A program made the position numbers and the translations under genes. From the NCBI GenBank assembly GCA_048886685.1, contig JBHLKM010000013.1:32001-96000 (forward strand): a stretch of DNA of 64,000 nt, given 5' to 3'. Below, piece after piece: positions 33,872 through 56,081 of this stretch (the first letter of the stretch is position 1; each line of letters begins with the position of its first letter). The notes beneath the pieces are model-generated. The model was given only the letters and a program-made list of their open reading frames with translations, was not told the origin of the DNA and searched no databases. The stretch is from Candidatus Hodarchaeota archaeon. GTDB taxonomy: Archaea; Asgardarchaeota; Lokiarchaeia; Sigyniarchaeales; SOKP01.

Positions 33872-34003
33872 GGGGACTTAGTATAGCCCGGTAGTACGTC
33901 AGGCTCCAGATCCTATAAGCAAACTGTACGTGCAGAAACCTGAAAGTCGGGGGTTCAATTCAGGATGCATTTCGCGTCCTTTGGATATATCCCTCAGTCC
34001 CCA
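33872..34003 (+). tRNA. tRNA-Trp(CCA) with two introns (37/38: ~33910-33937; T-loop: ~33959-33988)
   Basis: GGGGACT/AGTCCCC acceptor, TCAGG-CT-CCA-G...A-CCTGA, GGGGG-TTCAA...AT-CCCTC; 74 nt after removing 28+30 nt. Confidence 0.9.
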
Positions 34004-34096
34004 TTTATTTAAACCTTAATTCTTTAGTTCTATAAAAATTTATATTATCTATCTATTGAAGAGACAAAAAAAAAGAAAATTTAATTTATGAAATTG

Positions 34097-34555
34097 TTAT
34101 TTTAGTAAGAAAAGAATTTGAGTTTTTAGTTCTTCGGGAGGTGCTACTCTCGGATCGTCTAAGTATAATTCATAAGCAATTCCAGATGTCTCATATCCAT
34201 TCTTTTCAGTCCATTGAGTAAGTGTGTTATATGCAGGTTCAATTTTGTCATAGGGGCCGGTATAAATGCAACCTGCATATTTTCCAGCGGGAATTTCACT
34301 TACCTTGATATCCCCTTTTTCAGGAAGTTTTTTAGAGACAGGGATACCAATTTCTAAATCCAGATTCTGCAAATCCATATTAAAGTATCCAGCAAAAGGC
34401 GCACTTGCAGGAATTTCTCCTTGTTCACCTAAATACTGCATAATTTTCATATAAGATTCTCCCAGCAGTTGAGGTAATTGTTGTACTGAAGTTTTTGTAC
34501 GTATAGATAAAACTATTTGAGCATTTCGTTCTAAAATTTCACAATAATACGACAT
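34097..34555 (-). CDS. GyrI-like small-molecule-binding protein
   Basis: PAGKYA..YTGPYD, YELYLDDP. Confidence 0.88.
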   Translation of the reverse strand: MSYYCEILERNAQIVLSIRTKTSVQQLPQLLGESYMKIMQYLGEQGEIPASAPFAGYFNMDLQNLDLEIGIPVSKKLPEKGDIKVSEIPAGKYAGCIYTGPYDKIEPAYNTLTQWTEKNGYETSGIAYELYLDDPRVAPPEELKTQILFLLK

Positions 34556-34809
34556 AGGATTTTCCCTTATATTTTTTGATACTATTTTCAATTATTATAA
34601 TTAACAAATTAAGAAGATGCAAATTTCAAAATTAAATAATATTTTTTAAATGAATCTCTGTAAAAAATAAGTGATTTACTAAGCTTGACGAACAAAAATT
34701 ATAACTAGTACATGAATAAATTGAAATTTGATTTCAATCTTATTAAAAATAAGATAAAAGTGGAAAAAATAGCACAATAAATGATACGACAAATTATTGA
34801 ATAGATGAA

Positions 34810-36729
34810 TTATAAGTTTTTCAACCGTTCTTGTTCTTTTTGCTTCTTTTTTTCGATTTTTTTCTTCTGCTTGTCCAGCTTTTTTCGTCTTTTTGTTTCT
34901 TGTTTCATTTCTTTTTCCTTTAATTTTCTCTCTTGTTTCAGCTTTTCAAGTTCCATTTTTTCTTTTTCAATAGCTTCTATTTCTGCTCTTTCTCTTTCTA
35001 ATCGTTCCCTTTCTAATCTGATCTCCTCTTGTTTTTCTTTTTCAATTTTTTCTAATCGAGCTTTTTCCGCTTGTTCTTCCATTAACCTTTCCTTTTCTTT
35101 TCGTTCTCTTTCTAAACGTTCTCTTTCTTCCCGTTCCCTTTCTTGTTTTTCTCTTTCCTTTCTTTCTTTTTCTTCCCTTTCTTTTCTTTCCTTCTCCAAG
35201 CGAATTTTTTCTAACCTTTCCCGTTCCTTCCTCTCTTCTTCTTCTATCTCAAAGTACCATGAATCAATTTTTTGACTTAATTCTTGTTTTTCTTTTACTG
35301 GCAATCCAAGTTGGGGTTCTTTTTTCAGGTAGATATTAGTATATTTACTCATTTCCCATACTTTTGCCTGATGTGTTGTGGTTGCGCTGACCCCTATCTC
35401 TCTCATTTTCTCCCTAGCAATTTCAAAAGCTTGCCCAATCGATCTCATCTCATAATTTTCAACAATAACCTTTTTTAAATAGGTTAAAATTTGTTTAACA
35501 TCCGCTATAGGTGGATTGGGTAATGGTTTAAATTCTACTTTTTCAGATTTTAATGTGTCTAGCTCAAATTTTTTTTGTTTGTATTCAGGTATTTCCGTGA
35601 TTTTAATTTCAGGATTTTGAATAACCTCTTGTTGAATATATACAGGTTGTTCTACCATTTTTGGAGTAACTGGTAGTTCCTTTTTTGCTTTTCTCTTAAA
35701 TTCTATTGGCCAACTTGTAAATGCATAGGAACGATCTTCTGCAGAAACAAAAATAGAATGTTTAGATGACTTTCTAGTAATTGAATCTTGTTGTTTGTGA
35801 GGAATTTGTGAAACAGCAGAGCTTAACATCGTTGACGCTTTTTCTATAATTGAGAAAAGATACATCGGGTCAAACTCAAGATTAGAATAAATACTTTTCA
35901 AGGAATTGATATTACTTTCAATTACGGTGAGATTTACAGGAGATAATGTTTCTTGTAACAGTTGATCAGCTCCAAAAGCTATCCCATTTAAACCTGCTAC
36001 TGAATTTAAGTATGAAGAATCGGATTTATTTCTCAATTTATCAGAAACTAAAATTTGATTGTAAAAATCCCAATGAGTGCTGAGAAGCATATGTCCATCT
36101 TTTGCAATTTGATAGGAATAATCTCTACGGATTGTTTCCATCATCTCCAAAAATATATCTTTATTAGGTATGAATATATTTCTCATTAATACTCCCTTTA
36201 TGAAAGTTAAATGTTCCTCCGACTTCAAAGTTAAGTCAACTGGAACTTTAATCACTTTTTCTGCAATAATAACCTCTTGATCCTCTACTAAAGTTACATT
36301 TCCTGAGGTAGCCATATGGTCATAAATAAAGTCCGATAGAATTAATCCTGTTAATATCCTATTATCAGTAATATATTTCCCTGATTCTAATTCAAATTTT
36401 AGAAAATAATATCCTAATCCAAAGAGAAAATGAAGGGTTCCTCTTCCCACTTCAATGGAATAGTCATATCCACTGAAAAAAGTAACTGAATCAGAGATAA
36501 TTTTTGATACTTCATGATGGACGTAAGTGCCTAACGTTGGATAGCCTAATAATTCACTCCAACTAGGTATCATAAAAAGAGAATTGTTGGTAAATAATTT
36601 ATTCTCCATTTTCTGTTTTTCAATTCTCTCTTTTTCAAGTCGTTCTTTTTCTAACCTTTCAATTTCTAATTTCTCTTTCTCGAGTCTTTCTTTTTCCAAT
36701 TGGTCTTCATTTATTTTTTCTATCCCCAT
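34810..36729 (-). CDS. Hypothetical protein with E/R/K-rich charged helical repeats at both ends
   Basis: ERLEK pentad repeats flanking a globular core. Confidence 0.75.
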   Translation of the reverse strand: MGIEKINEDQLEKERLEKEKLEIERLEKERLEKERIEKQKMENKLFTNNSLFMIPSWSELLGYPTLGTYVHHEVSKIISDSVTFFSGYDYSIEVGRGTLHFLFGLGYYFLKFELESGKYITDNRILTGLILSDFIYDHMATSGNVTLVEDQEVIIAEKVIKVPVDLTLKSEEHLTFIKGVLMRNIFIPNKDIFLEMMETIRRDYSYQIAKDGHMLLSTHWDFYNQILVSDKLRNKSDSSYLNSVAGLNGIAFGADQLLQETLSPVNLTVIESNINSLKSIYSNLEFDPMYLFSIIEKASTMLSSAVSQIPHKQQDSITRKSSKHSIFVSAEDRSYAFTSWPIEFKRKAKKELPVTPKMVEQPVYIQQEVIQNPEIKITEIPEYKQKKFELDTLKSEKVEFKPLPNPPIADVKQILTYLKKVIVENYEMRSIGQAFEIAREKMREIGVSATTTHQAKVWEMSKYTNIYLKKEPQLGLPVKEKQELSQKIDSWYFEIEEEERKERERLEKIRLEKERKEREEKERKEREKQEREREERERLERERKEKERLMEEQAEKARLEKIEKEKQEEIRLERERLERERAEIEAIEKEKMELEKLKQERKLKEKEMKQETKRRKKLDKQKKKIEKKKQKEQERLKNL

Positions 36730-36929
36730 AATATCAACTATAAATTTGTAGGTATAATTTCTTTATAATTAATAATTTTGATTTTTTTATCATGTTTTGA
36801 TATAGTCTATAATAAATTTATTTCTAGTGTATAATTAAATCTAAATAGATCACTAATATATATAATAAAATTAATATGAACAATTAGCAATTATTTAATT
36901 TAGGATTAAATTAGTTTGAGGTTTCACTA

Positions 36930-37307
36930 ATGTATCGAATCGAGAACATTGGAGAGAATCAATTTTATATAAAAGCATTAGGCACATTCCCACCATCAGT
37001 ATCAAAACGTTTTATGAAAGAATTTAATAAAAAAACAAAAAAATCAAAGGAATTTTCAGTAATCGTAGATGGTGTCGACTTTATTCTACTCAATCTTGAA
37101 TCATTTGAAATAATTTTGGATTTCCTGAAAAAAAATAATGAGAGATTGCATAGATCTGCTTGGATTATTACCAAAAATCCACCATTGGATACAGAAATCC
37201 AAATACTTCTTGATAGAGCTAAATCTCCTAAAAGGAAAATCGTCCAAAATCTTAATGATGCAAAAAAATGGATTGGGGTAAAGGATATTATTATAGAATC
37301 AGAATAG
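36930..37307 (+). CDS. STAS/SpoIIAA-like small protein
   Basis: VIVDG.DF, SAWII, AKKWI pattern. Confidence 0.55.
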   Translation: MYRIENIGENQFYIKALGTFPPSVSKRFMKEFNKKTKKSKEFSVIVDGVDFILLNLESFEIILDFLKKNNERLHRSAWIITKNPPLDTEIQILLDRAKSPKRKIVQNLNDAKKWIGVKDIIIESE

Positions 37308-37316
37308 TTAATTTCA

Positions 37317-38114
37317 TTAAATATTCAATCTCTTTTTACATAAATCGATAGCTTTTGAATTATTATCTACACCAATCCATTTTCGATTTAATTTGTTAGC
37401 TACAGCTAAAGTTGTACCTGTTCCACAAAAAAAGTCAGCAACAATATCTCCTTCATTTGAAGATGCTAAAATTATTCTTTCAAGCAATTCTTCAGGTTTT
37501 TGTGTTGGGTATCCTAAATATTCTTTTGATCGAGTTCTTGTTTGATATGAATATATATCATTCCAAACATCTCCTAATACATTTCCAGGCTTTTCATCCA
37601 AGTATTGTTTTCCACCTCTTCTCTTCCTATAGAGACGTCCATCATCATCTTTATATCGAAACATCTTTCTAATATATTCTTCCTTATAAGGAGTAAATTG
37701 TTTATTGAAGGTATACTGATCGGATTTGGTATAAAATAAGATTGTATCGTGTTGCCGCACCCATCCTTTAACCTGACTTTTAAATCCGGATACACTTCGA
37801 ACATTCCATATTATTTCCCTTCTAAAAAACTGTCTTCCAAAGATTCTATCACATATAAGTTTAAGATCAAATACAGCATTCGCATCACTGTGACAATAAA
37901 AACTACCAGAATTTTTTAAAACTCGGTGTATTTCTTTTAATCTCTCTTCCATGAAGTTCAAGTAATCCTCTAATGAATTCCAGTCATCCAAAAATTCTTT
38001 ATAATCTACTCCTGTGTAAAAGGGAGGATCTATATAGATTAGATCAATACACTCCGAATCGAGTTTTCTTAAGAATTCTAAATTTTCTGCGAAATAGACA
38101 GTATTTAATTTCAT
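37317..38114 (-). CDS. Orphan N4-C/N6-A DNA methyltransferase (beta class)
   Basis: IDPPF, YPTQKP..L..RII, DFFCGTGTT. Confidence 0.9.
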   Translation of the reverse strand: MKLNTVYFAENLEFLRKLDSECIDLIYIDPPFYTGVDYKEFLDDWNSLEDYLNFMEERLKEIHRVLKNSGSFYCHSDANAVFDLKLICDRIFGRQFFRREIIWNVRSVSGFKSQVKGWVRQHDTILFYTKSDQYTFNKQFTPYKEEYIRKMFRYKDDDGRLYRKRRGGKQYLDEKPGNVLGDVWNDIYSYQTRTRSKEYLGYPTQKPEELLERIILASSNEGDIVADFFCGTGTTLAVANKLNRKWIGVDNNSKAIDLCKKRLNI

Positions 38115-38152
38115 GTGAGAGTTAAATAGAACTGATGATTTATACAATTATT

Positions 38153-38539
38153 ATGAGTAAGGAACGATTAAATAAGAATTTCTTGGATGAGTTTAAGGAT
38201 TATAATTTTTCCAAAATTCGAGAAAATAAAATATATTTAGTTGGATCAATTCGTTTTAAAGACTATTTCATCAAAATTGAGTCTATTTTGCAAATTTTAT
38301 ATAATAAAGTCGTGTATATTTGTTCGGTTGATGGATTATTAAACAAAAAAAAGTTTTCTCCAGAAGAATGGGAGAAATTACAAGAAATTGCTCTTAGGAA
38401 ATTACAGGATCAAGATGCTATGTTAGTCTTGGATATAGATGGTTATATTGGAGACCATTCTATGGAAGAAATCGAGATTTTTCAGAGAAAATACAAAAAA
38501 CCAATTTATTATTTATCTAAGTTAAGAAATCATAAATAG
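38153..38539 (+). CDS. Nucleoside 2-deoxyribosyltransferase-like protein
   Basis: IYLVGS.RF, D..LVLD.DGYIG..S.EEI. Confidence 0.6.
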   Translation: MSKERLNKNFLDEFKDYNFSKIRENKIYLVGSIRFKDYFIKIESILQILYNKVVYICSVDGLLNKKKFSPEEWEKLQEIALRKLQDQDAMLVLDIDGYIGDHSMEEIEIFQRKYKKPIYYLSKLRNHK

Positions 38540-38894
38540 CATCTTAGACAAATCATTAATTTCATAGTATTAGTGCGCCTAAGATTGCTTGAATTCTCAT
38601 TAATTTTATGGCTCACAATATATGAATGACATTTCAACTCTAATAAAAATCTATTGATTAAAAAAAGATTACTATACCTTAAAGCACCTGATTTAAAGCG
38701 GTTTTAATGCTATTCAGATTAAAGATTGAGATATGATATATGCCAAATGGTGCACTGTTCTTTTCTAGTAAAGGTTCAATTTTTTCCAAGAATTTTCCCT
38801 TTAAATTTCGAATCATATCATCATAACCAGGGCTTACTTTATGAAAAAGAAAAAAAATATAACATTGATATCAATATTAATACCCGGATATGAA

Positions 38895-39794
38895 ATGAAA
38901 CCATTAATACTTTTAGTAGACAATGATCCAAAATTCCTAGAAATTACCAAGACAGTCTTAGAATTTAACGAAGCCAAAGTTCTAACAGCAAAAAATGGAA
39001 AAGAAGGATTAAAAATTCTCGCCGAGTTAAAAAAGGCACCTGATATTATAATCAGCGAGATAATGATGCCAGAAATGAATGGCTATGACTTTTTTGAAGC
39101 AGTTTCTAATGATCCTAATTTTAGTCATTTACCCTTCATTTTCTTATCAGAACTTGATTCTCCTGAAGAAATTCGAATGGGAAAAATGCTTGGAGTGGAC
39201 GATTATCTTACTAAACCAGTTAATGATGATGATTTACTTGCAATTGTTGCGGGAAAAGTAAAACGTAAACTGCAAAACGAACTTTTTGATATTAAGATTA
39301 AGGAAAAATTTACTTCGAAAAAAGAAGGAAAACTACTTGACTCTAAAGAACAGAGAGATTTTCTATTAGTAATTGAAGTCAATTGGGATGATAGATTAGG
39401 ACCAAACTTGGTAGATCATTTCCCTAAAGATATTTTGCTAGACTTTCCTCTCAGCCACGTTGCTGGTCAGCTTTACGCTACGATTAGCTCAATTTACGGG
39501 CAGGAACGTATCACAAAAGCAGAAAGTCTTTTGTTAAAAGTCAAAAATTTCAATATTATGGCGTATGTTTTTTTCGATTCTTATCCTGATGAAACATACA
39601 GAGGAGGAAATAAGGATTATATGTTTTCGGTTATTGCACCAAAAATTACCTATTTCCAGTCTTTACAAATAAAGCCTGTATTTAAGGAAATTTCCTCATT
39701 GTATAAGAAAATAAAAAGTTGGGATATAGAAGCATTTTGGTATAGATTTTCAGATATTTTTACGCAAGAAGCAAATAGTATCAATTTAGAATAA
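38895..39794 (+). CDS. Atypical receiver domain fused to a uDENN/longin-like domain
   Basis: LLVDND, IISEIMMPEMNG, YLTKP; then VNWDDRLGP...FP. Confidence 0.75.
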   Translation: MKPLILLVDNDPKFLEITKTVLEFNEAKVLTAKNGKEGLKILAELKKAPDIIISEIMMPEMNGYDFFEAVSNDPNFSHLPFIFLSELDSPEEIRMGKMLGVDDYLTKPVNDDDLLAIVAGKVKRKLQNELFDIKIKEKFTSKKEGKLLDSKEQRDFLLVIEVNWDDRLGPNLVDHFPKDILLDFPLSHVAGQLYATISSIYGQERITKAESLLLKVKNFNIMAYVFFDSYPDETYRGGNKDYMFSVIAPKITYFQSLQIKPVFKEISSLYKKIKSWDIEAFWYRFSDIFTQEANSINLE

Positions 39795-40047
39795 ATAATC
39801 ATATGATCAGAAGGGAATTGATGATTATTTAAAAAATATATGAGCTTTACTTCTGTTTATTGGACATGGAATATTATAAATATAGGATGAGTTTTTCTTC
39901 TATATGAGTTCACAACCAACTATACTTAATTTTCTTTGTGAATAAATATCTCAACGATAATCTAATTAGAAATTCAATTCAGTCCAAATAGTTATATCGC
40001 GCTTATTCCATTTTGTAAATAATCATTATTAAGGGTTTAAATGGAAA

Positions 40048-41028
40048 ATGGAATTGTTCCAAGTTTTTTGGGACGAGGGAAAAAGACTTTTTTTAGAATT
40101 CAAGAAAGATAAAAATGAAAATCAACTTCTTCTCCCTAAAAGAATTAAACGTTTAAACATAAAATTTGAGATATCAAAAGCAATCAAACATGATTTATTT
40201 TCTAATCAACCTCCTTATCTTGTTTCTATTAAAAAACTCTACTATTCAGATGAACATCTCTGTTTTTCAATTGATTTAAACGAGGTATATGGATATGACG
40301 ATTTACAAATAAGAATTTTAAAATTAACAGTATTTATGAGTTCTGGGCAGCGTATTGAATATAAATTCGAAGAAAAATTTAATATTTCAGATATTGGGAT
40401 TAATGAGGAATGTTATGCTGGATTTCAGTTCATTGACTTAGATATGAAGAAAAGCCAGCATAGCACTTTTACCAGAGAAAAAGTATTTCAGGAGGTAAAA
40501 ACCGATTTCAATAATGAAAAACGAGAGAGCACAGTTATCTATGAGAAGAATAGTATTAAAAGTATATCTTCAGATGAATCAATTATCTCAATGATTAGTG
40601 AAAGCAACAGAACTTTGAAAAACATTGAAAGCCATCTAAAGAATTTAAATCTAACACTTCAAAACATGCCATTGGGAAATATTTCATATGGTGTACGTAC
40701 TCGTCTTCCTAAGAGTACATCAGAACCTGCAATTGAGAGAAAAAGACTTCCAACAAAACCAACATTGATTCAAAGTCAAATGTCTTCGAATAAATTAATG
40801 GTGATTAAAGAAATGAAAACAATTTTTCAACAAAATATTGATAAAAATGAAATTTTTAATGTAAAAGAAATCTTAAAGCCATTGACAGAAGAAGAACTTA
40901 AAGAAATGATGGTGGAGGACGAAATTTTGAGGGAGAAAGAAGAAGAGGCAATTAATAATCAAATAAAAAGGCTTAAAAAACAGCAAGAAAAGAAAATTAA
41001 CTTGGATGATCTTAAAAAGCCTAAATAG
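40048..41028 (+). CDS. Hypothetical protein
   Basis: 326-aa ORF, beta-rich N-terminus, helical C-terminus. Confidence 0.65.
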   Translation: MELFQVFWDEGKRLFLEFKKDKNENQLLLPKRIKRLNIKFEISKAIKHDLFSNQPPYLVSIKKLYYSDEHLCFSIDLNEVYGYDDLQIRILKLTVFMSSGQRIEYKFEEKFNISDIGINEECYAGFQFIDLDMKKSQHSTFTREKVFQEVKTDFNNEKRESTVIYEKNSIKSISSDESIISMISESNRTLKNIESHLKNLNLTLQNMPLGNISYGVRTRLPKSTSEPAIERKRLPTKPTLIQSQMSSNKLMVIKEMKTIFQQNIDKNEIFNVKEILKPLTEEELKEMMVEDEILREKEEEAINNQIKRLKKQQEKKINLDDLKKPK

Positions 41029-41171
41029 AAGATGAATTTGAATTGGAATAATAGAATAATATGATTTACTGATTTTTTGACAGTTAATTCAAATCAATAA
41101 GTAGCAAATCTTTAATTATTTTCTAATATTGGATATAAAAGAGGAAATATATTCAAGCGAGGTTATCTAAA

Positions 41172-41948
41172 ATATTATTAAATTATTTCATAGGTACAGC
41201 CGGAAGTGGTAAGACTACTCTCACGGGTGAGTTAAAAGAATATGTTGTAAATCGAGATCCAGAGATTTCAGCAATTACTTTAAATCTCGATCCCGGTGCT
41301 AAAATCATTCCTTATGCTCCTGATATTGACATAAGGGATTACATTGTTTTAGAGGAAGTTATGGAGGAATATAGTTTAGGACCTAATGGTGGAATGATTT
41401 TAGCATCTGATTTGATGGTAAATTTTTTAGATGATATAAAAGATGAAATTGATGAATATAACCCGGAATGGATATTTGTAGATACTGCAGGACAACTTGA
41501 GCTATTTGCATTTCGAGAAACTGGACCTTTAATAGCTAGCGCATTAGGATTTGGTGATGTCCAAAGAGCTGTGAGTTTTCTCTTTGACTCGAGTTTTGTT
41601 CTCAGACCTAATGGTTTTATTTCAACTTTACTTTTAGCAGCTTCTGTACAATTTCGTTTTAGAAATATCTCGCAAATAAATATTTTATCCAAAGTTGATC
41701 TTATTGATGAAGATCAAATAGATATGGTTATTAATTGGAGTCAAGACTTTCAAGCGTTAGAGGATTCCACAAGCGAAAGAGAAAAGGGATTAATCAGAGA
41801 ATTATCAATGCTAGTTTCTGAGGTATTTATTCAAATGGGATCCACAAGTGAATTAATTCCATGTTCGGCAAAAGAAGATCATGGTTTGGATATTCTATTC
41901 GGCCATTTACAGAGAGTTTTTGATTCAGACAAATCAAAATTTTATTAA
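41172..41948 (+). CDS. GPN-loop GTPase; probable ATA start
   Basis: In-frame IGTAGSGKTT and NLDPG upstream of the tracked ATG; LGPNGG, DTAGQLELF, SKVD. Confidence 0.88.
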   Translation: MLLNYFIGTAGSGKTTLTGELKEYVVNRDPEISAITLNLDPGAKIIPYAPDIDIRDYIVLEEVMEEYSLGPNGGMILASDLMVNFLDDIKDEIDEYNPEWIFVDTAGQLELFAFRETGPLIASALGFGDVQRAVSFLFDSSFVLRPNGFISTLLLAASVQFRFRNISQINILSKVDLIDEDQIDMVINWSQDFQALEDSTSEREKGLIRELSMLVSEVFIQMGSTSELIPCSAKEDHGLDILFGHLQRVFDSDKSKFY

Positions 41949-41996
41949 TCAAGTTTAAATTCCAAAAAATTGAAATAGAAGATTATACTAAGAAGC

Positions 41997-43097
41997 ATGA
42001 AAATTATTGGGCCTATCGCAGGCATCGGTTCAAGATTAAGACCGTTTACTTTAAGTAAACCAAAAGCTTTCCTAACAGTTGCAGGTAAAACAGTCTTGGA
42101 TCATATTCTTGAAAAATTTAGTAATACTTTTGATCCAAATACAGAATTAATACTTATTGTTGGGTATAAAAAGAGACAAATAATTGAATATGTAAAAAAG
42201 AAATATTCTGATAAGTTTAAACTCATTTTTATTGAACAAATTCCTCGAGGCTATTCCAATGATGACATTCCTTTTTATTGGGGATTAGGCGAGGCAGTTT
42301 ATCTGTCAAATATAAGATTTAAAAAACAACATTTTGAAACAAAAGAGCAAGATAAGAGAGAAGGAGCCCTTATTTTCTTAGGAGATATGCTCCCTGTCGA
42401 TGAAATCTCATATTTTATGTATCGTTTTTTTGAATCTGATGTAGATGGAATTATCGCAGTTATAGAAGTTCCAAATGAAGATGCAAGCTCATATGGTGTA
42501 GTAACTGTAGATGAAAACTCAATTATACAAAGTCTTGTGGAAAAACCACAAAATTTTATATCAAATTTAGCCATTATGGGTCCTTACGCTTTTTCAAATT
42601 CAGCTATAATGGCACTCTTTGAAAATATTAAATATTATTTAGATCAGAAGTCAGAAACTACAAAGGAAATATATTTAACACAAAGTTTGCAAGATTTAGT
42701 AGATAAAGGATTTAGAATCGCTGCTATTAAACTAAAAAAAGGAAATCTTGATTTTGGTAGACCTTCTGAATTACTTAAGGGTAATAGATATCTACTAACG
42801 CAAAATTCTGTTAAAAGAGAAGATTTTCCAGATTTGAACATAACAGTTGATAAATCTTTTTTAAAAAATCCTGTGTTTATTGGAGAGAACACTAAAGTTG
42901 TAAATTGCGTTATCGGCCCATATGTTTCAATAGGAGAAAATTCATATATAGAAAATTGTATTTTGGAAAATAGTGTTATCGAAAAAAGAGCACAGCTAAA
43001 AAATATTATAACTAAAAACTCAATCATAGGGAGTGATGTAATGGTTGAGAATATTAGTAAAAATAATTTAATTATTGGAGATAAAAGCAGCTCATAA
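41997..43097 (+). CDS. Sugar-phosphate nucleotidyltransferase
   Basis: AGIGSRLRPFT..PK, YGVV, VEKP, C-terminal left-handed beta-helix. Confidence 0.9.
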   Translation: MKIIGPIAGIGSRLRPFTLSKPKAFLTVAGKTVLDHILEKFSNTFDPNTELILIVGYKKRQIIEYVKKKYSDKFKLIFIEQIPRGYSNDDIPFYWGLGEAVYLSNIRFKKQHFETKEQDKREGALIFLGDMLPVDEISYFMYRFFESDVDGIIAVIEVPNEDASSYGVVTVDENSIIQSLVEKPQNFISNLAIMGPYAFSNSAIMALFENIKYYLDQKSETTKEIYLTQSLQDLVDKGFRIAAIKLKKGNLDFGRPSELLKGNRYLLTQNSVKREDFPDLNITVDKSFLKNPVFIGENTKVVNCVIGPYVSIGENSYIENCILENSVIEKRAQLKNIITKNSIIGSDVMVENISKNNLIIGDKSSS

Positions 43098-43258
43098 TAA
43101 AATTCTTTATCAGATCTTTTTCATCCAAAAATCTAGAAATTAATAATTTCTATAAAATATAGTTAAATATTAATTGTAGAAAGATTAAAATAGTAATTAA
43201 TAATATCAAGATTTTGAATATATAAGAATTTTAAATTATACTCGTCTTATTGTTTATC

Positions 43259-44635: not shown

Positions 44636-44660
44636 ATATTCGAAAAATTCTTAAAGAAAT

Positions 44661-45983: not shown

Positions 45984-46129
45984 ACTTTTATCCTTATATA
46001 TTTTAATGATTATTAAAATTATTGAATACAAATAAATTTCATTTATAGAAAGACTATATATTGATTAAGTAACAAGAAGAGGACTAATATTATAAAGAAA
46101 ATTCACGAATTTAATAAAAAAGACAGAAA

Positions 46130-46549: not shown

Positions 46550-46893
46550 AATATCGAAATCACGAATTTTTTATATTTTTTTTATAAAAATAATTTAACT
46601 TTATTATTAAATGTGATGAAATCTGTATATAAAAACTTTAATGAAATTCTCAAATTCAAATATTTTTTTGCGAATTGAAAATAATATTGTCAGAAAATGT
46701 TTATCAATCTATTAATAAAGAAATAAGTAAGTACAAATACGGTAAAAGGAACTAAAATTTGGGATTTGTTGATAATTAATATTAATAAAAAATGCTTTCA
46801 GCATTTAATTTTTAAAAGAAATTGTACTGCCATTAATATTATTAGAGATGCATCAATTTTTCAATATATAATCATATAGAAAGTAGTAAAATA

Positions 46894-47691
46894 ATGTCAA
46901 ATGAAATTCCAGAAAATGTGAAGGATTCTTTAAGATCAATAGGTCTTACAGATTATGAAATCTCAATTTATCTTACTTTGATCTCAAAAGGTCCAATGGA
47001 TGCTCGAGAGTTATCAGATGCATCAGGTGTTCCTTATTCACGGATATATAACATACTTACACAGCTAGAAAAAGAAAAAATGTGGATAATCAAGGAAGAT
47101 TCCAGACCTAGTCGTTATTTTGCCAAATCCCCCGATGAAGCTTTAGTTATTGCTAAAAAGCAATATAGTGAAAACTTCAATGATCATTCAAACAAAATTA
47201 TGCAATCTCTTACACCCATTTACCAATCACATGATACTCCTATCAAGATCGCTCTATATGTTCATAGAGGCAGAGATGTCTGTATCAATAGAGCTCTTTC
47301 TTTAATTAATTTAGCAAAAACCTCAATATATTTTACTTCAACAGAATTCGAACTGTTGGAATTGTTTTTTGATGACATAAAAAAAGCAAGAGCTAGAGGT
47401 GTAACTGATATAAAACTCCTAGTTGAATCAAAAGCTTTAGAAGCAAAAAATTTTAAATCATTACTGAAGAAATATAATCCCATCAGTGAAATTAGATGGA
47501 GAGACCAAATTTTTGGCAGTTCGGTTATAATTGATGAAGGAGAAGATGCTTTTATTATTCTTTCTGAAAGTTTTTTTCCAAAAAAAATGTCTTATTTCGG
47601 TATTGTTACGGATCATGTAGCTTTTGGCCCTTCTTCTTTATATTATTATGATTATCTCTATAAAAGTGCAAAAGAAGTAAAATTGGATTAA
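46894..47691 (+). CDS. TrmB-family transcription regulator
   Basis: GLTDYE..IY.TL, ELSDASGVPYSRIY. Confidence 0.9.
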   Translation: MSNEIPENVKDSLRSIGLTDYEISIYLTLISKGPMDARELSDASGVPYSRIYNILTQLEKEKMWIIKEDSRPSRYFAKSPDEALVIAKKQYSENFNDHSNKIMQSLTPIYQSHDTPIKIALYVHRGRDVCINRALSLINLAKTSIYFTSTEFELLELFFDDIKKARARGVTDIKLLVESKALEAKNFKSLLKKYNPISEIRWRDQIFGSSVIIDEGEDAFIILSESFFPKKMSYFGIVTDHVAFGPSSLYYYDYLYKSAKEVKLD

Positions 47692-47732
47692 CAAATAATT
47701 TTAATTAATTAATATAAAATAAAGAGTTTCTT

Positions 47733-47987
47733 TTACCATTTAATCTGTATTGCTTGTTCTGGACAAGCTTCAATGCACTTAAAACAACGTGTACATACAG
47801 AAGGCCATACAGCTGTAATTTTCCAATGCTGAGGATCGTATATATTTTCTTCCTTGTATTTAAGATCTTCATGTCTTAAGAATACACATGGATCACATAC
47901 ATTAAGGCATCTTCCACATTCTCTTGGATCCACATCGCTCTCAGGACCACATTTTGAATAATCTATTTTAATCTTTGTTTTCCCCAT
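47733..47987 (-). CDS. 4Fe-4S ferredoxin
   Basis: CGRCLNVC, CTRCFKCIEACP. Confidence 0.85.
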   Translation of the reverse strand: MGKTKIKIDYSKCGPESDVDPRECGRCLNVCDPCVFLRHEDLKYKEENIYDPQHWKITAVWPSVCTRCFKCIEACPEQAIQIKW

Positions 47988-47995
47988 AAAATCAC

Positions 47996-48865
47996 CTAAA
48001 AATGTCCATTAAACCCAGGAAATTCCTTTCTTGGGATAAGATTTAACGCATCATGTTTACAAACATGACGGCAAACACCACATCCAAAGCATTTATTATA
48101 ATCTATAATAACTCTATTTACTGATGGAATAAATCTGATCGCATTCCATTGACACGTAGCCACACATGACTTGCACCCTTGACAATTATCCTGATTTAAA
48201 TTGATGATATATTCCGCTTTTGACATTACCATTAAATTAAAATCATTTCTCAATCGTAATGCCCCGCACTCAGGACTTTCGCAATTGCATATAGCATTAA
48301 TATATGGAACTGGTTGATACCATACAGTTGAAACCAATCCATTTTTATTATGTTCTTCTAATCTTTCAACTGCTTCCTCTCGAGAGATTCTATATGCTCT
48401 CTCTTTTGGAATAAATCGAGGGAGTTTTTCTATTATCTCTGAAAGTACTCCAAAATTAATACAACTCTGAGTTTTTACCCCTCTTTGCATCATTCGACAC
48501 ATGCAATAGGTTTCAACAATAGGTTCAGTAGCTAACTCAGATAGAATGATTTTCGCATCCTCCATAGGAATTACTTGTCCAATATGACCATCTGCTCTTA
48601 TAGGTTTTGGGTGCCTAACAGTACCATGGATCATCTTTTCAGCAGCATGGCGAATTATTTTTCCAATAAGTGGTATTTCTAGTTTGTATCCTAATCCCTT
48701 GGATGATAATCCTGCAATTTTTCGAATAAAGACTGTTTCAAAATTCATCCATTGTTCTGTTAGATATTCTTTCATATCTAACTCTTTCGCAAGTTGATCA
48801 GAATAATTTTTTGCATTCATGTACCATTTCTGACCGATTCCATGCTTAAAACACCATTTACACAT
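47996..48865 (-). CDS. Fe-S protein with C-terminal 2[4Fe-4S] domain
   Basis: CMCR, ICNC, CQGCKSCVATC, CFGCGVCRHVC. Confidence 0.85.
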   Translation of the reverse strand: MCKWCFKHGIGQKWYMNAKNYSDQLAKELDMKEYLTEQWMNFETVFIRKIAGLSSKGLGYKLEIPLIGKIIRHAAEKMIHGTVRHPKPIRADGHIGQVIPMEDAKIILSELATEPIVETYCMCRMMQRGVKTQSCINFGVLSEIIEKLPRFIPKERAYRISREEAVERLEEHNKNGLVSTVWYQPVPYINAICNCESPECGALRLRNDFNLMVMSKAEYIINLNQDNCQGCKSCVATCQWNAIRFIPSVNRVIIDYNKCFGCGVCRHVCKHDALNLIPRKEFPGFNGHF

Positions 48866-49015
48866 AGAACAGATCCCCTATATTTATCAAAATTTTTTAT
48901 GTTTTATTTTTGATTAAATATTAAATAAATTTTAAAATCTACTAAATTTACCTAAAAGTACGTAAATGTTCCATCATTCCAGAACCAACTTCTCCCGTAA
49001 CCAAGTTTTTCATAA

Positions 49016-49981
49016 CAACCATTTGTTCAAATAACTCAGTATCCATCATTATTCGGTGGAAAGGGTTCTAACCTAATAAAACTCATAAATTCCAATATTA
49101 ACGTCCCTCCAGGATTTATTATAAATACAAAATCCTATAAAAATTTTTTAAAAACATCCCAAATAAAGGAAAAGCTCCTTCATATTTTATCAAACGGCTA
49201 CCATGCAAAAGATATTATAGGTATTTCTAATAGAATAAAAGAATTATATCTTCGAGCACAAAGTACACAAGAAATTACTGAGGAAATAAAGATTGCCTAT
49301 ACCAAACTAGTTAGAAAAACTAGTAAAAACACCTCGTTTTCTGTTAGATCATCTACAGATATTGAAGATTCAAACTGTTTCTCCTTTGCTGGACAAGCAG
49401 AAAGTTATTTGAATATCAAAACTTTTAAGGGTATTATAAATTATATTAAAAACTGCTGGATATCATTATACAGTCCACAGGCATTACTAAATTTCCTTAA
49501 AATGAATAAAGAAAATAAAAAAATTTCTTTAATAGAATTAAAAATGGCAGTAATAATTCAAAAAATGATTAACTCTCAAAAATCAGGTGTTTTGTTTACA
49601 GTAAATATATTAAATAATGATAAAAATGAAATGCTGATTAACTCAACCTGGGGTCTTGGTGATACAAATACCAACAATATTTTCGTCCCTGATATGATAA
49701 ATCTTGATAAGAAGCAATTCAAAATTGTAAAAATAGTGATTGTGAAAAAAGAAAAAATGTCCCTTATCAACTCTAATAGGCCATTAACTGGACTATCAAA
49801 AATAAAACAAAAGCTTAAAGAAATTTGTTCTTTAAATAACCATCAGCTTTTCCAGCTTTATAATCTAGGGTTAAATATTGAGTCAGTCTTTAATTACCCT
49901 CAAGATATTGAATGGGCTATAGAAAAGGATATCTTATACACCCTCCAAAGTCGCCCCATTATAACTCTGAGAAAAATATAA
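49016..49981 (+). pseudogene. Stand-alone PEP synthase/PPDK N-terminal (ATP-grasp) domain, start unclear
   Basis: Frame open from 49016 with GGKGSNL, VPPGF, VRSS..ED..FSFAGQ, PQDIEWA, LQSRPI; no ATG after TAA 49013. Confidence 0.7.
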
Positions 49982-50004
49982 TAAGAAAAGAATAAACTTA
50001 TTAA

Positions 50005-50460
50005 TTACTTCAGAAATGTTCTCTTTCCTAAATAAATAAAAAGTTCTGATAACTCAAAGAGCGTCAATGGCATTACTAAATTTGCCATATCAGTACGAAG
50101 CTCTTCTTTGTCTTTTCCTGCAAGTATTAAAGTCCGTATATCTTCGACATAATCATCCATATTTAAGAATAATATTTCTATCTTATCTACTCCCGTCAGC
50201 TCTTCAATATCTTTATCTAAATGTTGTTCAACATCATTAAGTAAGCCCAACTTCAATTTAGGATTAAGATTATATTTAATAATAAGTTTATTCATTTCTT
50301 CGATGATGATATTCAAAGATAAATTCCAATCTGCATTTTCTTTATATTTAGGAATAAGAATATCACTAATAATAATTTCAAAAAGGGTTGTTGGTGCCTT
50401 TTGGTCAAAATCTACTTCAATCCCTGTACTTAATTTTATCTTTTTGGTATCTTCAGTCAT
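50005..50460 (-). CDS. Hypothetical protein
   Basis: Helical ORF. Confidence 0.6.
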   Translation of the reverse strand: MTEDTKKIKLSTGIEVDFDQKAPTTLFEIIISDILIPKYKENADWNLSLNIIIEEMNKLIIKYNLNPKLKLGLLNDVEQHLDKDIEELTGVDKIEILFLNMDDYVEDIRTLILAGKDKEELRTDMANLVMPLTLFELSELFIYLGKRTFLK

Positions 50461-50632
50461 ACCCAATCTCAACTTGAATCTAAAATTATAATATCCTTAA
50501 TAATTAATGGATTACGATTTAATAAATATTTTTAATCATCATTCCATTTGAAAAATTTACAATTAATTTTTTAAGGATCGATAATAATTCAATCAGTAAA
50601 TTATATATCCAAACTTAGCTTTATTACGGTAT

Positions 50633-51901
50633 ATGGGACTAAATATATTACTAGTAAATCCTAATAGGTTTCACAGTCCTCCAGTAATCCCAATAGGTTT
50701 AGAATATTTAGCTACTGCATTAGAAAAACACAACCATGATGTTGAGATCTTAGACCTATGTTTTTCAGATAAACCAGAAAAGGATTTGGACAATATCCTT
50801 AAGAAGAAATCATTTGATTTAGTAGGATTTACTATTCGTAATATTGATTCAGCAATTTACTTTAATAACGAATTTTTTTTACCCGACTTCAAGCCTCTAG
50901 TCCAGAGTGTTAAGGAACAAAATATTCCTGTAGTACTAGGAGGTTCAGGATTCTCTGCCATGCCTAACGAAATTCTCAACTTTCTTAAAGCTGATTATGG
51001 TATTATTGGTCCAGGGGAGATAATTTTTCCGAAGTTTTTAGAGTTAATGCAATCTAATAGTACAACACAAAAAATATTCGATGGTTGGGAGTCAGGTGTG
51101 GATAACTCATTAGTAAATATAAGGGGAAATAGAGTAGATTATCCCCAGTATTTAAAGGAGGAAGGTATAGTCGGATTTGAAACTCACACTGGCTGTAATA
51201 ATCAATGTCCCTACTGTATAGAAGCTAATACCCGAGTACATTTCAAAGGTATTTCAAAAATTATAGAAGAACTAGCTCATCTTGTCAGTCAAGGGTATAA
51301 TCATTTCCATACCTGTGATACTGAGTTTAATACTAACTTAAAGTTTTCAATAGATTTTTGTTTAGCGTTAATTAAAAGAAATTTAGATATGAAATGGGCT
51401 CTTTATATGAAACCAACCCCATATAACGAAAAATTTTTTGAACTTTTACATAAATCAAAAGCTTATTTAATTACTCTTTCAGTTGATAGTGATGAGAGAA
51501 TTCAGAAATCAAATAAATATAATTATGATGATTTAAAGAAAATTGTAAACTATTGTCACAAATATGACCTTACATTGGCTATAGATTTATTAATTGGATA
51601 TCCTAATGAACCATTAAAATCAATAAAAAAAATTATAGACTTCTTTAAAAATAATCGCCCTTTTACAGTCGGAATAAGTTATAATTATCGCGCTTATAAC
51701 TACACACCACTAGCAACCTTAATAAAGGAGGATCTTTCCTTACAAAAGAACTTAAATAAACAATATAGAGATGGTGAAACCTTTTTGGAACCAATTTTCT
51801 ATAACCAACTGTCTCAGGAGACAATAGAAGAATTAATTGACAACGATGATCTGTTTAAGATTGCTGGAATTACCCCTGGGGTGAATTATCAACAAATTTA
51901 A
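50633..51901 (+). CDS. B12-binding radical SAM protein
   Basis: PIGLEYL, RNID, VLGGSGF, GCNNQCPYC. Confidence 0.9.
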   Translation: MGLNILLVNPNRFHSPPVIPIGLEYLATALEKHNHDVEILDLCFSDKPEKDLDNILKKKSFDLVGFTIRNIDSAIYFNNEFFLPDFKPLVQSVKEQNIPVVLGGSGFSAMPNEILNFLKADYGIIGPGEIIFPKFLELMQSNSTTQKIFDGWESGVDNSLVNIRGNRVDYPQYLKEEGIVGFETHTGCNNQCPYCIEANTRVHFKGISKIIEELAHLVSQGYNHFHTCDTEFNTNLKFSIDFCLALIKRNLDMKWALYMKPTPYNEKFFELLHKSKAYLITLSVDSDERIQKSNKYNYDDLKKIVNYCHKYDLTLAIDLLIGYPNEPLKSIKKIIDFFKNNRPFTVGISYNYRAYNYTPLATLIKEDLSLQKNLNKQYRDGETFLEPIFYNQLSQETIEELIDNDDLFKIAGITPGVNYQQI

Positions 51902-51951
51902 AGATTTAAATTAAATAAAAAAACCGCAAAATTTTGATCGAGATCTAGAAC

Positions 51952-52856
51952 CTATCCACCAATCTGAGCCTTTACTCCACAAGATTCAACAATCTTCTTG
52001 AGTCTTATCATATGGTCGTCGCTAGGGGGTTTAACATTTATAAGTTTATAATCTCTATCAAGTTGACCATATATTTGTGTACCAAAAATATGGTAGGGTA
52101 AAAGTTCAATCCTTTTGAGGTTATCTCCTAATTTAAAAGCGAATTTCGCTGTATTTAATATGTTATCATCTGAATCATTACATCCTAGTACCAAGGGTAT
52201 ACGAATTATAATAGGACGGATAACAGAAGCTTTCCTTGCGTTTTTTAGGATTAATTCACTAGAAACACCAGTGAGCTCTTTGTGCGCAAGAGTATCCATA
52301 TGCTTTATGTCAAAATATATGAGATCTACATATGAAAGAAGTTTCTCCAGATATTCCCACTTCACATATCCACAGGTTTCTATCGCAGTGTGTATATAGC
52401 TCTGCTTACACCTTTTAAGAAAAGCTGTAATAAATTCATGTTGCATTGTGGGCTCACCACCACCTACAGTGATCCCTCCATTTGAACGCCTATAAAACGG
52501 GCTATCTTTGATAACCTCTTGGAACAGTTCCTCAACTGTCATATATTTTCCCACAAGATTCAGAGCTTGGTTAAGGCAGGTTTCAACACATTGACCGCAA
52601 CTTGTACAGACCTCTCTGTCAATTATAATACCTTCCTCTTCGAATAATGTAATCGCATCAAGAGGATATATCTCAATACAGCGTCCACACATTTTGCAGT
52701 TAAGCCTAATATGAAGAATCTCAAAGGACGGTTTCTGGGTTTGGGAGATGAACACCGTAGGCACATTAAGGGATATCCTTTCATATATATAAGGGTTCGA
52801 ATTCCAGGACCATCATGGATGGCGAACCTTTGTATATCGTGTATTAAGCCTTTCAT
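51952..52856 (-). pseudogene. Glycyl-radical enzyme activase, inactivated
   Basis: IQRFAIHDGPGIRT N-terminus in another frame (shift near 52742); CxxxCxxC reads YPLMCLRC; ferredoxin motif CKMCGRCIEIYP also has C to Y. Confidence 0.85.
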
Positions 52857-53043
52857 TTCTCCACAGTGTATGCTCCTTATTATTTTGTAAAAATCTTTTC
52901 CCCTATTAATAACTTTTATTTTGAAATTAATGATTTTTTTATGATTATGAAATCTGGATTATTTACATCTTCTTATTTAAATCAATAATTTCTCGTATTT
53001 AAAATGGTATATTCTTATTCTGGGTAAGTAGAATAGAAAAAGC

Positions 53044-53194
53044 AAAAAATCGGAAACCATGAATCTTAAAAAATTAAAAAGAGGAGACGTATTTATCTAA
53101 TAACAGGGTTAAGGGTTGAGGTATTTAGCCGATTGCTCGACTTTAGGTATAAGAATATATTGTCGTTTCATGGTTCTCCGATCTTTTATTTTTG
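53044..53194 (-). ncRNA. Candidate structured small RNA
   Basis: Upstream TTTAAATA, ~15-bp terminal stem, internal GCAA-tetraloop hairpin, 3' U-tract. Confidence 0.45.
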
Positions 53195-53326
53195 ACAATA
53201 TATGTTGAATTTTTCTACTATTTAAAAATTTCCTTTTTTTCATGTGAAAAAATTGAAAATTGTGTAAACAAGTATTCTCTAAATTTTGGAAAATTCTGAA
53301 AAATATATCAAAATAGAATAGAGGAT

Positions 53327-54544
53327 TTATAAAGATCCATAAACATTTTTTAAACCTTTATTTAAACCGAAGAGAAATTTTTCATTAGAATGCTCTATTA
53401 GAGAATTTGTATACTCAATGATCTTTTTAGCAATTTCAGGGTTTCGAAGCATTTGAACCTCGACCTTTTCAGCTCTATCCCATAATAGGTATGGCGTATC
53501 TTCATATGGAACCTCTTTTTTAACTTCTTTTATCCAACTATCTGGTAATTCATTAGTTAATTCTACATCAAGCATTTTTGCTAAAAAAATACTCCAAGCT
53601 CTAGGGACAACAGTTATTAAATATCCTCCTCCTCCGAATGCAACCCATTTATCTTGACAATATTCTTTTGCACAAGTTTTCATCGTCTGGGCTATATCTC
53701 TATAAACTGCTAATGAAAAGCCCATCTGTGTTAAGGGATCATCAAAATAGGTATCTACTCCTAACTGCGTTATTAAAATATCTGGGCTGTATGCTTCTAA
53801 TAATTTTGGTGCTGTTTTCCTGAATAATTTTATGAAAGATTTATTATTTGTCCCTGGCAGTAATGGGAAATTAATAGAATAACCATTCCCATCTCCTTCT
53901 CCAGTTTCATTAATAAATCCCGTTCCAGGAAAGAGAAACCTTCCATCTTGATGGTATGATATTGTTAAAACGTTAGGATCGTCATAAAAAAGCCATTGAA
54001 CACCATCACCATGATGACAATCAATATCAACATAGGCAATTTTAATGTCTTTTTTCAAAGTTTTTAAATGCTGAATAGAAATGGCAATGTCATTAAAGAT
54101 ACAAAAACCGGAAGCTTTTTCTCTCATTGCATGGTGAAGACCGCCTGCTGGATTGAATGCCACTTTTACCTCTTCTTCATTCCACACTTTATCTGCGGCA
54201 ATAATACTTCCTCCAGATATTAAAGCAGAAGCTTCATACATTCCTTTGAAAATAGGGTTATCTCCTGGTCCTAAACCATATATATAAGGAGATAATGATT
54301 TGTCGTTAGGATTTTCACTTAATTTTTTTACGACATCAATATATTTCGGAGAATGAACTCTTTCTAACTCTTCTCTGGTGGCCATTCGAGGCTCCAGAAT
54401 ATCTAATCTTTCATTTTCTAACAATTTTAGCTTATCCATAAGACTATACGTCAGCTTTAGCCTTAAGGGTCTCAGGGGATGATCTTTTCCAAAATTATAC
54501 TTTTGATATTCTTTGGTATAAACAAGCCCGACTTTATCCACCAT
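53327..54544 (-). CDS. Histone deacetylase family protein (AcuC/class I-like)
   Basis: HPLRP.R, GGLHHA, GFCIFND, DIDCHHGDG, GGGGY. Confidence 0.93.
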   Translation of the reverse strand: MVDKVGLVYTKEYQKYNFGKDHPLRPLRLKLTYSLMDKLKLLENERLDILEPRMATREELERVHSPKYIDVVKKLSENPNDKSLSPYIYGLGPGDNPIFKGMYEASALISGGSIIAADKVWNEEEVKVAFNPAGGLHHAMREKASGFCIFNDIAISIQHLKTLKKDIKIAYVDIDCHHGDGVQWLFYDDPNVLTISYHQDGRFLFPGTGFINETGEGDGNGYSINFPLLPGTNNKSFIKLFRKTAPKLLEAYSPDILITQLGVDTYFDDPLTQMGFSLAVYRDIAQTMKTCAKEYCQDKWVAFGGGGYLITVVPRAWSIFLAKMLDVELTNELPDSWIKEVKKEVPYEDTPYLLWDRAEKVEVQMLRNPEIAKKIIEYTNSLIEHSNEKFLFGLNKGLKNVYGSL

Positions 54545-54741
54545 TATAGTAAGTAAAATTAGGAGTACTATAAATTTTTTTTACATATTTTATAAGACAT
54601 GATTTCAAAATTGCTTTATCTGTTTGATAATTTTAAGAAAAAAAAAGTAATATATAAGAGAACTTGTATTATCAAAATATCATAAGAAAAAATAAATATA
54701 TAATATATAGTTCATACAAAATTATTTTATCACTTTAAAGA

Positions 54742-55296
54742 ATGAGTGTTATATTTCGAAAATTTTTAACTCGGGTTGGGCAACAGTCTGAATTTAAGCC
54801 TTTGAAGAATCAATTACTTAATTATTTGAAGAAGGAAAGTGAAAACAAATACAGGAATTACCCGAGATTAATAAAACTCATGAAGGATTATTGGCCTGAA
54901 TATCAAGACCGTTCACGTATTTCTCATCTTTTAAAAGATCACCACGAGGAAATTTTTAAATTGTATTTAAATACCTTTTTTCATTTCCGTAAGCGAGGGC
55001 TTTCTTTTGAAGATCCAGAAGCCCCTACCCCTGTTGATTTTAAGTTAGTGTTTAAATACAGATATAATTCTAAAGAAATTGAAGTAGTAGAAGAAGTAAT
55101 AAAGGATTTGAATATTGAAGCTAATACTGAATCAATACTGAAAAGGGTTTTTATATTTGCCATAAGCTCTTTCGGCTTTTTAGTAGAACAAATTTTTGGG
55201 AGACCATTTGCCTTTCAATTTTTCGATATAACAGCAAATCCTCTTCCTAATGATGAGTGTGAAGTAGTAGCTATAATATCAGGAAGAGAGCAATAA
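54742..55296 (+). CDS. Hypothetical protein
   Basis: 184-aa ORF. Confidence 0.6.
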   Translation: MSVIFRKFLTRVGQQSEFKPLKNQLLNYLKKESENKYRNYPRLIKLMKDYWPEYQDRSRISHLLKDHHEEIFKLYLNTFFHFRKRGLSFEDPEAPTPVDFKLVFKYRYNSKEIEVVEEVIKDLNIEANTESILKRVFIFAISSFGFLVEQIFGRPFAFQFFDITANPLPNDECEVVAIISGREQ

Positions 55297-55307
55297 TAAT
55301 TCCATTG

Positions 55308-55733
55308 TTATTTAGTTAAAAATGATCCAAGGTCCATCAGATCATCACCACGTTTTACTTGGATCTTGCCTCTTATTCCTTTAACTTTCCGCTCTAAATA
55401 TATTATGGCATCAAGAGGAATTTTTTTGGGAACCCCTCCTCTTTGTTGAATAATTGCTAATAAATAATCTATGTTTTGTATGACCTCGGGATTTATTAAC
55501 TCATTATAAATTGCGTGATATACATTCGGTTGCTTGTTTTTCAGACCATTCAAGTAATTATAAGCATCTGGAGCTAACACCACCTTGAGAACATATTCAA
55601 CTTTTTCTGAAATTGTAACTACTCTATCTTTTACAAGTTCCTGATGTTTCTTCGCATCTATTATTGCTTTCATTTTTCTCATACGTATTTTTTCTAACTC
55701 ATGCTGTTCAAAATCTTTATCGCTTTCATTCAT
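55308..55733 (-). CDS. PDCD5-like DNA-binding protein
   Basis: ELEKIRMRKM, VL..VLAPDA..YL..LK..P......NELI. Confidence 0.65.
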   Translation of the reverse strand: MNESDKDFEQHELEKIRMRKMKAIIDAKKHQELVKDRVVTISEKVEYVLKVVLAPDAYNYLNGLKNKQPNVYHAIYNELINPEVIQNIDYLLAIIQQRGGVPKKIPLDAIIYLERKVKGIRGKIQVKRGDDLMDLGSFLTK

Positions 55734-55897
55734 TTTATTGATTATCTCTGCTTATTTAATCGTATATCTAAATAATTATATTAATAATTAATGGAGGTTA
55801 AAATAATAATTTTTTGAGAAATTTAATTCTAAATGAAAAATAATAATGATATCTTTACATCTTCTTATAAGAAGTTACATGAAAAATTAGAAAAAAA

Positions 55898-56081
55898 TGG
55901 TCCCTCCCCCCGGATTCTAGCGTGATCCGATATGGACCCTTATTTCGAGCCGGGGACCGTTCCCGGTATGGTCGATATGCACCATAACTCTCGGTTACGG
56001 CTGACGTAACTTCATTAGCTACAAGCTTTAGTACGCGACATTATCTACAGCCGAGCACTCTGACCACTGAGTTAGGGAGGG
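55898..56081 (-). tRNA. tRNA-Tyr(GUA) with three introns (~56044-55996, ~55989-55960, ~55944-55916), encoded CCA
   Basis: C1:G72 acceptor CCCTCCC/GGGAGGG-A-CCA, CTCGG-CT-GTA-G...A-CCGAG, T-stem CCCGG/CCGGG; 76 nt after removing 49+30+29 nt. Confidence 0.85.

Follow-up and report, generated by a model that had tools for sequence, protein, structure and literature searches.

We analysed a window of 64,000 nucleotides (nt) from the 4.4 Mb genome, 31% GC, of a member of the Lokiarchaeia (Candidatus Hodarchaeota archaeon, assembly GCA_048886685.1). In this window, two transfer RNA (tRNA) genes, tRNA-Trp and tRNA-Tyr, carry three inserts at non-canonical positions: one in the T-loop of tRNA-Trp, one in the variable region of tRNA-Tyr and one in its T-loop. 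The three inserts belong to a lineage-specific family of hairpin introns, about 30 nt long, that occurs both in tRNAs and in messenger RNAs (mRNAs). The characteristic loop of the family, R-N-N-U-C, called here the UC loop, is very probably under selection on the RNA strand. It is kept in T-loop introns and in mRNA introns but seldom at other places, a distribution that suggests a recognition signal, so far unreported, in addition to the shape of the splice junctions' bulge-helix-bulge (BHB) motif.

The two genes and their introns are the following, with positions counted in the window:

33872..34003, + strand: tRNA-Trp(CCA) gene with two introns (22 relatives matched)
33910..33937, + strand: canonical 37/38 intron of tRNA-Trp, 28 nt, without UC loop
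33959..33988, + strand: T-loop intron of tRNA-Trp, site 58/59, 30 nt (intron-less orthologues, folds)
33968..33974, + strand: apical C-AUUUC-G loop of the Trp 58/59 intron
55898..56081, - strand: tRNA-Tyr(GUA) gene with three introns, CCA encoded
55996..56044, - strand: canonical 37/38 intron of tRNA-Tyr, 49 nt, without UC loop
55960..55989, - strand: variable-region intron of tRNA-Tyr, site 43/44, 30 nt (6 of the 20 closest Tyr loci, fold)
55915..55943, - strand: T-loop intron of tRNA-Tyr, site 59/60, 29 nt (17 of the 20 closest Tyr loci)

Comparison with orthologues, some carrying the insert in question and some lacking it, pins all three junctions exactly, and removal of the inserts gives back a normal cloverleaf, as in the intron-less orthologues; this confirms the places and sizes (Trp 30 nt, Tyr 30 and 29 nt) proposed in an initial annotation of the window. 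Both genes were missed by ARAGORN and Rfam in the window, and were found instead with a purpose-written, insert-tolerant tRNA aligner, some calls of which were corrected by hand.

The initial annotation also assigned to the three inserts a common C-G-closed pentaloop, AUWUC, and this holds for two of them. The Trp 58/59 intron has a C-AUUUC-G pentaloop at intron nt 11-15, on a stem of 7 base pairs, and the Tyr 59/60 intron has C-AUAUC-G at intron nt 11-15, on a stem of 5 base pairs (heptamer at 55928-55934). The Tyr 43/44 intron does hold the corresponding heptamer CATWTCG, at 55973-55979, but its predicted fold has an 8-nt loop and the alignment of its orthologues a hexaloop ending in UC: a loop of 6 to 8 nt ending in UC is more likely here than a C-G-closed pentaloop.

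Splice junctions and enzymes

The initial annotation could fold no BHB motif at the junctions. Reading the sequence with the junctions fixed by orthologues, we can draw a relaxed BHB at all three: the central helix pairs exon GUUC with intron GGAU in Trp 58/59 (4/4 pairs, two of them G-U), ACCG with CGGG in Tyr 43/44 (3/4 pairs), and CUCG with CUAG in Tyr 59/60 (3/4 pairs). Minimum-energy folds recover the apical stems, and the BHB only in part; according to a 2026 preprint (10.64898/2026.10.13.758758), the relaxed class often arises by chance.

The genome encodes two paralogues of the endonuclease EndA, a catalytic alpha subunit and a structural one without the catalytic motif, as well as an intact RtcB gene. 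The alpha subunit is nearest to that of A. pernix (3p1z/3ajv) and retains the CSL K-P-R residues, and CSL-type endonucleases are known to cleave non-canonical introns (PMC12397907, PMC2724299). With a CSL-bearing EndA pair and RtcB present, removal of the introns can be explained without an extra factor. On this sequence evidence, the three inserts are almost certainly EndA-type tRNA introns, which an (αβ)2 EndA would splice and RtcB would join.

A family with a fixed build

A hand-curated census of the genome, in which a few boundaries may be 1-2 nt off and a few genes may be missing, gives 27 non-canonical and 11 canonical tRNA introns. Lengths of 28-32 nt are found in 21 of the 27 non-canonical introns against 1 of the 11 canonical ones (Fisher p 1.5e-4), and most of the hairpins have their centre at intron nt 13. 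The common size noted in the initial annotation is thus real, but it is not peculiar to the three introns of the window. A typical member starts with a single bulge base, continues with a hairpin made of two 9-nt arms around a 5-nt loop, and closes with four bases of the central helix and two bulge bases.

Our first searches for T-loop introns were restricted to 28-33 nt, and the lengths of their matches are therefore no evidence on size. A phylum-wide search allowing 16-40 nt does bear on it: among the matches listed for this family, 92 of 93 have 29-32 nt and 74 have exactly 30, while in the same search the introns from other Asgard families span about 18-33 nt.

Several genes carry more than one intron. 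A tRNA with anticodon UAU (Ile), at C1:218424-218599, has three introns of about 25, 45 and 30 nt; a tRNA-Phe at C1:17818-17985 (- strand), miscalled as His by ARAGORN, has three non-canonical introns of 30, 29 and 28 nt; and a Val(UAC) gene in a relative (L228:4600-5720) has three introns of exactly 30 nt each, in a stretch that also holds tandem Ser(UGA) and Lys(CUU) genes whose T-loop introns are near-identical. Another genome of the same class (L333, G059 C3:627500-631800) has about 20 tRNA matches within 4.3 kb, a tRNA array that possibly sits on a mobile element.

The UC loop in tRNA introns

The exact heptamer CATWTCG is found in 3 of the 27 non-canonical tRNA introns of the genome and in none of the 11 canonical ones, among them the two canonical introns of the window, as the initial annotation had noted for that pair. 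None of 2000 dinucleotide shuffles has this fixed heptamer in at least 3 of the 27 introns. The motif was chosen post hoc, however, and without anchoring, 84% of the shuffles give some 7-mer (one free position, at least three G/C) common to three introns; anchoring at intron positions 9-11 lowers the figure to 0.4%, or 8.9% without the G/C condition. Taken alone, the three-way match within the genome is weak post hoc evidence, and it is the wider sample that is decisive.

The initial annotation proposed looking for an enrichment of the heptamer in related introns, and the enrichment is there: the heptamer occurs 10 times among 244 related non-canonical introns of 27-33 nt, two of these occurrences being off-apex, against 0.9 expected. 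The consensus of the T-loop intron apex is C-R-N-N-U-C-G, and C-AUWUC-G is merely the commonest form of the looser R-N-N-U-C loop, with C-AUUUC-G as the commonest single form. A UC-ending loop is seen in 66 of the 132 T-loop introns, which represent 29 sites, a site-weighted frequency of 0.42 versus 0.096 under permutation. At other tRNA positions such loops are found in 12 of 78 introns at 49 sites (0.12 versus 0.045), and in 0 of 56 canonical hairpins. A test that requires no folding gives the same picture: of the 77 T-loop introns of 30 nt, 36 have UC at nt 14-15, against an average of 5 for the remaining offsets; at other tRNA positions it stands there in 3 of 42. The sampled genomes are kin, the sites are not wholly independent, and isotype labels are partly automatic.

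Outside the lineage, no UC loop was found in the T-loop introns of other Asgard families (0/23) or in those of mostly non-Asgard archaea (0/27), two sets that cover few sites and partly overlap. Some records titled Promethearchaeota belong to other Asgard classes, which dilutes the signal. Many Thermoplasmata (L174-L280) have a T-loop intron in tRNA-Ser(GCU), G/C-rich and with a stem of 9-10 base pairs, whose loop is not a UC loop; its 30-33 nt reflect the length window set by the search. A genome-wide search for CATWTCG hairpins returns 691 matches, mostly chance.

The 17 orthologues of the Tyr 59/60 intron show which bases are held. The U and the C are present in 17/17; loop position 1 is A or G, positions 2 and 3 take 4 and 3 states, and the closing pair is U-A, U-G or C-G. 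Among 127 pentaloops, the combination at bases 1 and 5 is A·C 60 times and G-C 22 times. The signal also has a strand bias: the motif is found 56 times in the forward sense and once in the reverse sense only, and the stems contain 67 G-U against 38 C-A.

The same loop in messenger RNAs

Three coding genes, uL11, pfk and cobO, were checked for inserts against orthologues. De novo scans for mRNA introns are noisy, and uL11 and pfk alone were kept from them after orthologue checks. The inserts noted in this genome are:

C1:204867: insert in uL11, 35 nt, with exact C-AUAUC-G
C16:51445: insert in pfk, 30 nt, UC-ending in 5 of 5 carriers
C17:95397: insert in cobO, loop not ending in UC
C4:207110: insert in an unnamed small gene

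All four are 30-35 nt long, break the reading frame, are of BHB type and are missing from many relatives. Restored reading frames and junction geometry suggest that such inserts are spliced out of the mRNA. The stem of the uL11 insert is A/U-rich and unrelated to the stems of the tRNA introns, and relatives have inserts at two further uL11 sites, with near-identical loops. Over 5 mRNA sites, UC is present in 18 of 22 distinct sequences (site-weighted 0.75 versus 0.095). A homology comparison with relatives, in which the motif was not used, adds four mRNA sites, three of them with UC, which brings the overall count to 7 of 9 sites.

A second pfk piece, 94% identical, at C5:244048-244245, has the same insert. 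Next to tRNA-Tyr lies a gene for a ubiquitin-conjugating enzyme (E2; window 56370-56888, + strand), and the matching stretch of the relative L007 holds an insert of BHB type, 30 nt long, whose loop is AUAUC. Two open reading frames (ORFs), HdrA-like at C6:146211 and MvhD-like at C11:123677, have an in-frame TGA, which we take to be probably selenocysteine, not an intron.

Gain, loss and copying

Gains and losses of these introns involve exact units, and their distribution among species is patchy. The clearest case of copying is in Loki_b32, where adjacent tandem Ser(UGA) and Lys(CUU) genes have introns whose 3' ends are alike at 21 of 22 nt, between near-identical T-arm flanks, a configuration that fits copying via short homology. 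Across isotypes, 11 pairs of T-loop introns reach a score of at least 28, against 0 and 0 in two hairpin-preserving nulls; with the loop masked the excess is just 18 versus 12, so it is mostly loop-driven. The Ala(CGC) 32/33 and Trp 15/16 introns have a common core.

The initial annotation considered that the three introns might be members of a mobile family spreading among tRNAs. The patchiness and the copying in relatives go in this direction, but the three are 50-57% identical, the maximum among the 38 introns of the genome is 67%, and no pair of these 38 across tRNA types reaches 80%: there is no recent burst of copying in this genome, while copying does occur in relatives. Nor were other marks of mobility found: no target duplication at the three introns, where orthologue comparison gives clean junctions, no displaced tRNA 3' end beside T-loop-intron matches (0/154 within the flanks examined), and, in the 8 ORFs that flank them, no nuclease or transposase domain of Pfam. 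For the tRNA introns, neither a viral carrier nor a cassette source was found. An origin by CRISPR-type 30-nt integration was rejected, since no duplication is seen and such integration would not yield a BHB.

In tRNA-Tyr, base 57 is G wherever the T-loop intron is present (17/17 genes) and A in the 3 genes that lack it, a pattern compatible with an exchange of patches or with selection acting on the central helix. A single genus holds two tRNA-Tyr exon types (L001-L020 and L021-L030), with T-loop introns that look unrelated and a similar 43/44 intron. In contrast to the 30-nt introns, the 49-nt canonical Tyr intron is near-invariant across the genus. Its internal loop is conserved, an anticodon-stem strand is repeated within it, and four relatives have 7 more nt at its 3' end; it is possibly a modification guide or a protein site.

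What the loop may do

The reading that we prefer is as follows. An (αβ)2 endonuclease would cut the relaxed BHB, and RtcB would join the exons. Introns come and go as exact units and are sometimes copied among tRNA genes with near-identical T-arm flanks, the simplest route being the exchange of short DNA patches, for which there is one clear case and whose generality is conjectural. The R-N-N-U-C loop would then be an optional recognition tag, about 9 base pairs from the cut sites, for a hypothetical reader protein, and would aid the processing of substrates in which an intact tRNA T-arm is not available, namely in T-loop introns and mRNA introns. That the loop is an optional tag assisting processing seems to us, from sequence comparisons, to have a little less than an even chance. 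A broader form of the proposal is more tentative, and we would sooner doubt it than adopt it: that Lokiarchaeia use a sequence-specific, ruler-positioned tag, R-N-N-U-C about 9 base pairs from the BHB, read by EndA or a hypothetical cofactor, so that one tRNA-splicing machine handles dispersed 30-nt introns in both tRNAs and mRNAs.

Several observations weigh against a tag. In single-copy tRNA genes, about one T-loop intron in two has no UC, among them those of Lys(CUU), Arg(CCU) and Gln(UUG) in this genome, and the loop of the cobO insert does not end in UC. There is no site-level correlation between UC and weak BHB central helices (rho 0.12, p 0.47), and no link with weak stems, the mean energies being -5.6 kcal/mol with UC and -5.9 without (p 0.67). 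A UC ending is also seen in certain D-loop and 43/44 introns (Trp 15/16, Tyr 43/44), which makes the position rule a trend, and the kinship of genomes and sites weighs on all counts. The loop was also compared with the structural T-loop motif (U-U-C-R-A with a U·A closing pair) and rejected as its mimic, which we count on the same side: the position corresponding to A58 is not rich in A, with A at offset +4 in just 25%, and the base 3' of the C is paired in the stem. Since half of the T-loop introns do without it, UC is not essential, and the absence of correlation with weak helices rejects it as a requirement at relaxed BHB sites. Of the conserved protein-binding tag suggested in the initial annotation as needed for splicing, the need is thus lost; what stands is a looser motif, whose UC stays fixed while neighbouring bases and stems change, and which extends to mRNA introns.

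The loop could instead serve spreading: in copying or homing, the loop would be the feature by which the excised intron, probably a circle, or its DNA is recognised, with UC introns re-invading and UC-less ones slowly lost. The patchy presence of introns in essential genes, the Ser(UGA)/Lys(CUU) sharing, the cross-isotype pairs, the common core of Ala(CGC) and Trp introns, the behaviour of Tyr base 57 and the evident functioning of UC-less introns are all in its favour. It is nevertheless unlikely in our view, given the small excess once the loop is masked, the low identities inside this genome and the lack of displaced ends, nuclease or transposase domains and viral carriers; D-arm introns, moreover, are just as patchy yet mostly without UC, and the preprint cited above, which treats other Asgard families, found no copying route that holds generally. 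We find it harder to credit a purely structural loop, in which an R·C cross-loop pair caps a three-base turn and speeds hairpin nucleation or resists nucleases, with no protein reader. The A·C and G-C counts at bases 1 and 5 are both pairable, and the constraint may be geometric, but such a cap does not account for the constancy of the U, for the confinement to one lineage or for the lack of the loop in canonical and most D-arm introns, and the stems of UC introns are not the weaker ones. A neutral relic of a single ancestor that happened to carry the loop, with the three-way match as luck, could draw on the frequent unanchored matches in shuffles and on counts inflated by kinship. This reading is largely refuted and we consider it improbable: UC outlasts its loop neighbours and closing pair in the Tyr, Trp, Ser, uL11 and pfk sets, while neutral unpaired bases should decay faster than stems, and it recurs on unrelated stems in mRNA introns found without the motif. 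Enrichment where the T-arm is deficient, a fixed distance to the cut sites and the strand bias together favour a processing tag over these three alternatives.

To our knowledge, recognition of archaeal introns is held to rest solely on the shape of the BHB. A ruler-positioned tag, if true, would mean that the intron itself contains a splicing signal acting in cis, and this among the close prokaryotic kin of eukaryotes. A fixed-length family with a selected loop, confined in our sample to one lineage, also offers two defined bases whose mutation can be followed by a simple assay of cleavage, and a marker with which to trace the spread of introns and to find hidden ones that disrupt gene and tRNA annotation.

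Comparison with known systems

Non-canonical BHB introns have been described in Asgard tRNAs (Valentin-Alvarado 2024, PMC11291895; preprint 10.64898/2026.10.13.758758), and the preprint treats their route of arrival as the central open problem. As in these descriptions, the introns studied here occur several per gene, occupy T-arm, D-arm and variable-region sites, are missed by standard software, result from repeated gains, go with an (αβ)2 EndA, and include few near-identical pairs across tRNA types per genome. Unlike them, the described introns centre on Jordi-, Freyr- and Atabeyarchaeia and have median lengths of 22-23 nt; the covered text of the preprint mentions neither hairpins nor Lokiarchaeia, and neither source, as far as covered, reports a build fixed at 30 nt or any sequence of the loop.

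The transposed introns of Thermoproteales (Fujishima 2010, via PMC4033280 and the preprint) resemble ours in the presence of related introns in different tRNAs, a CSL-type enzyme and many non-canonical positions. In that group, according to the preprint, cross-isotype families with at least 80% identity account for 28% of the introns, against 0 of 38 here, where the common element is the size and the loop, not the whole sequence. In Crenarchaeota, the intron of the cbf5 pre-mRNA (Yokobori 2009, PMC2738675) provides a parallel as an EndA-type intron outside tRNA, since the loop-tagged family described here also occurs in uL11, pfk and other coding genes; as far as covered, that case concerns one gene, whereas here many sites share one architecture and a common loop. 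In the literature that we searched, which left out most subscription journals, a lineage-wide 30-nt build with a position-dependent loop is not described. We take the chemistry of these introns to be ordinary; it is the lineage-wide build and the position-dependent UC loop that appear to be new.

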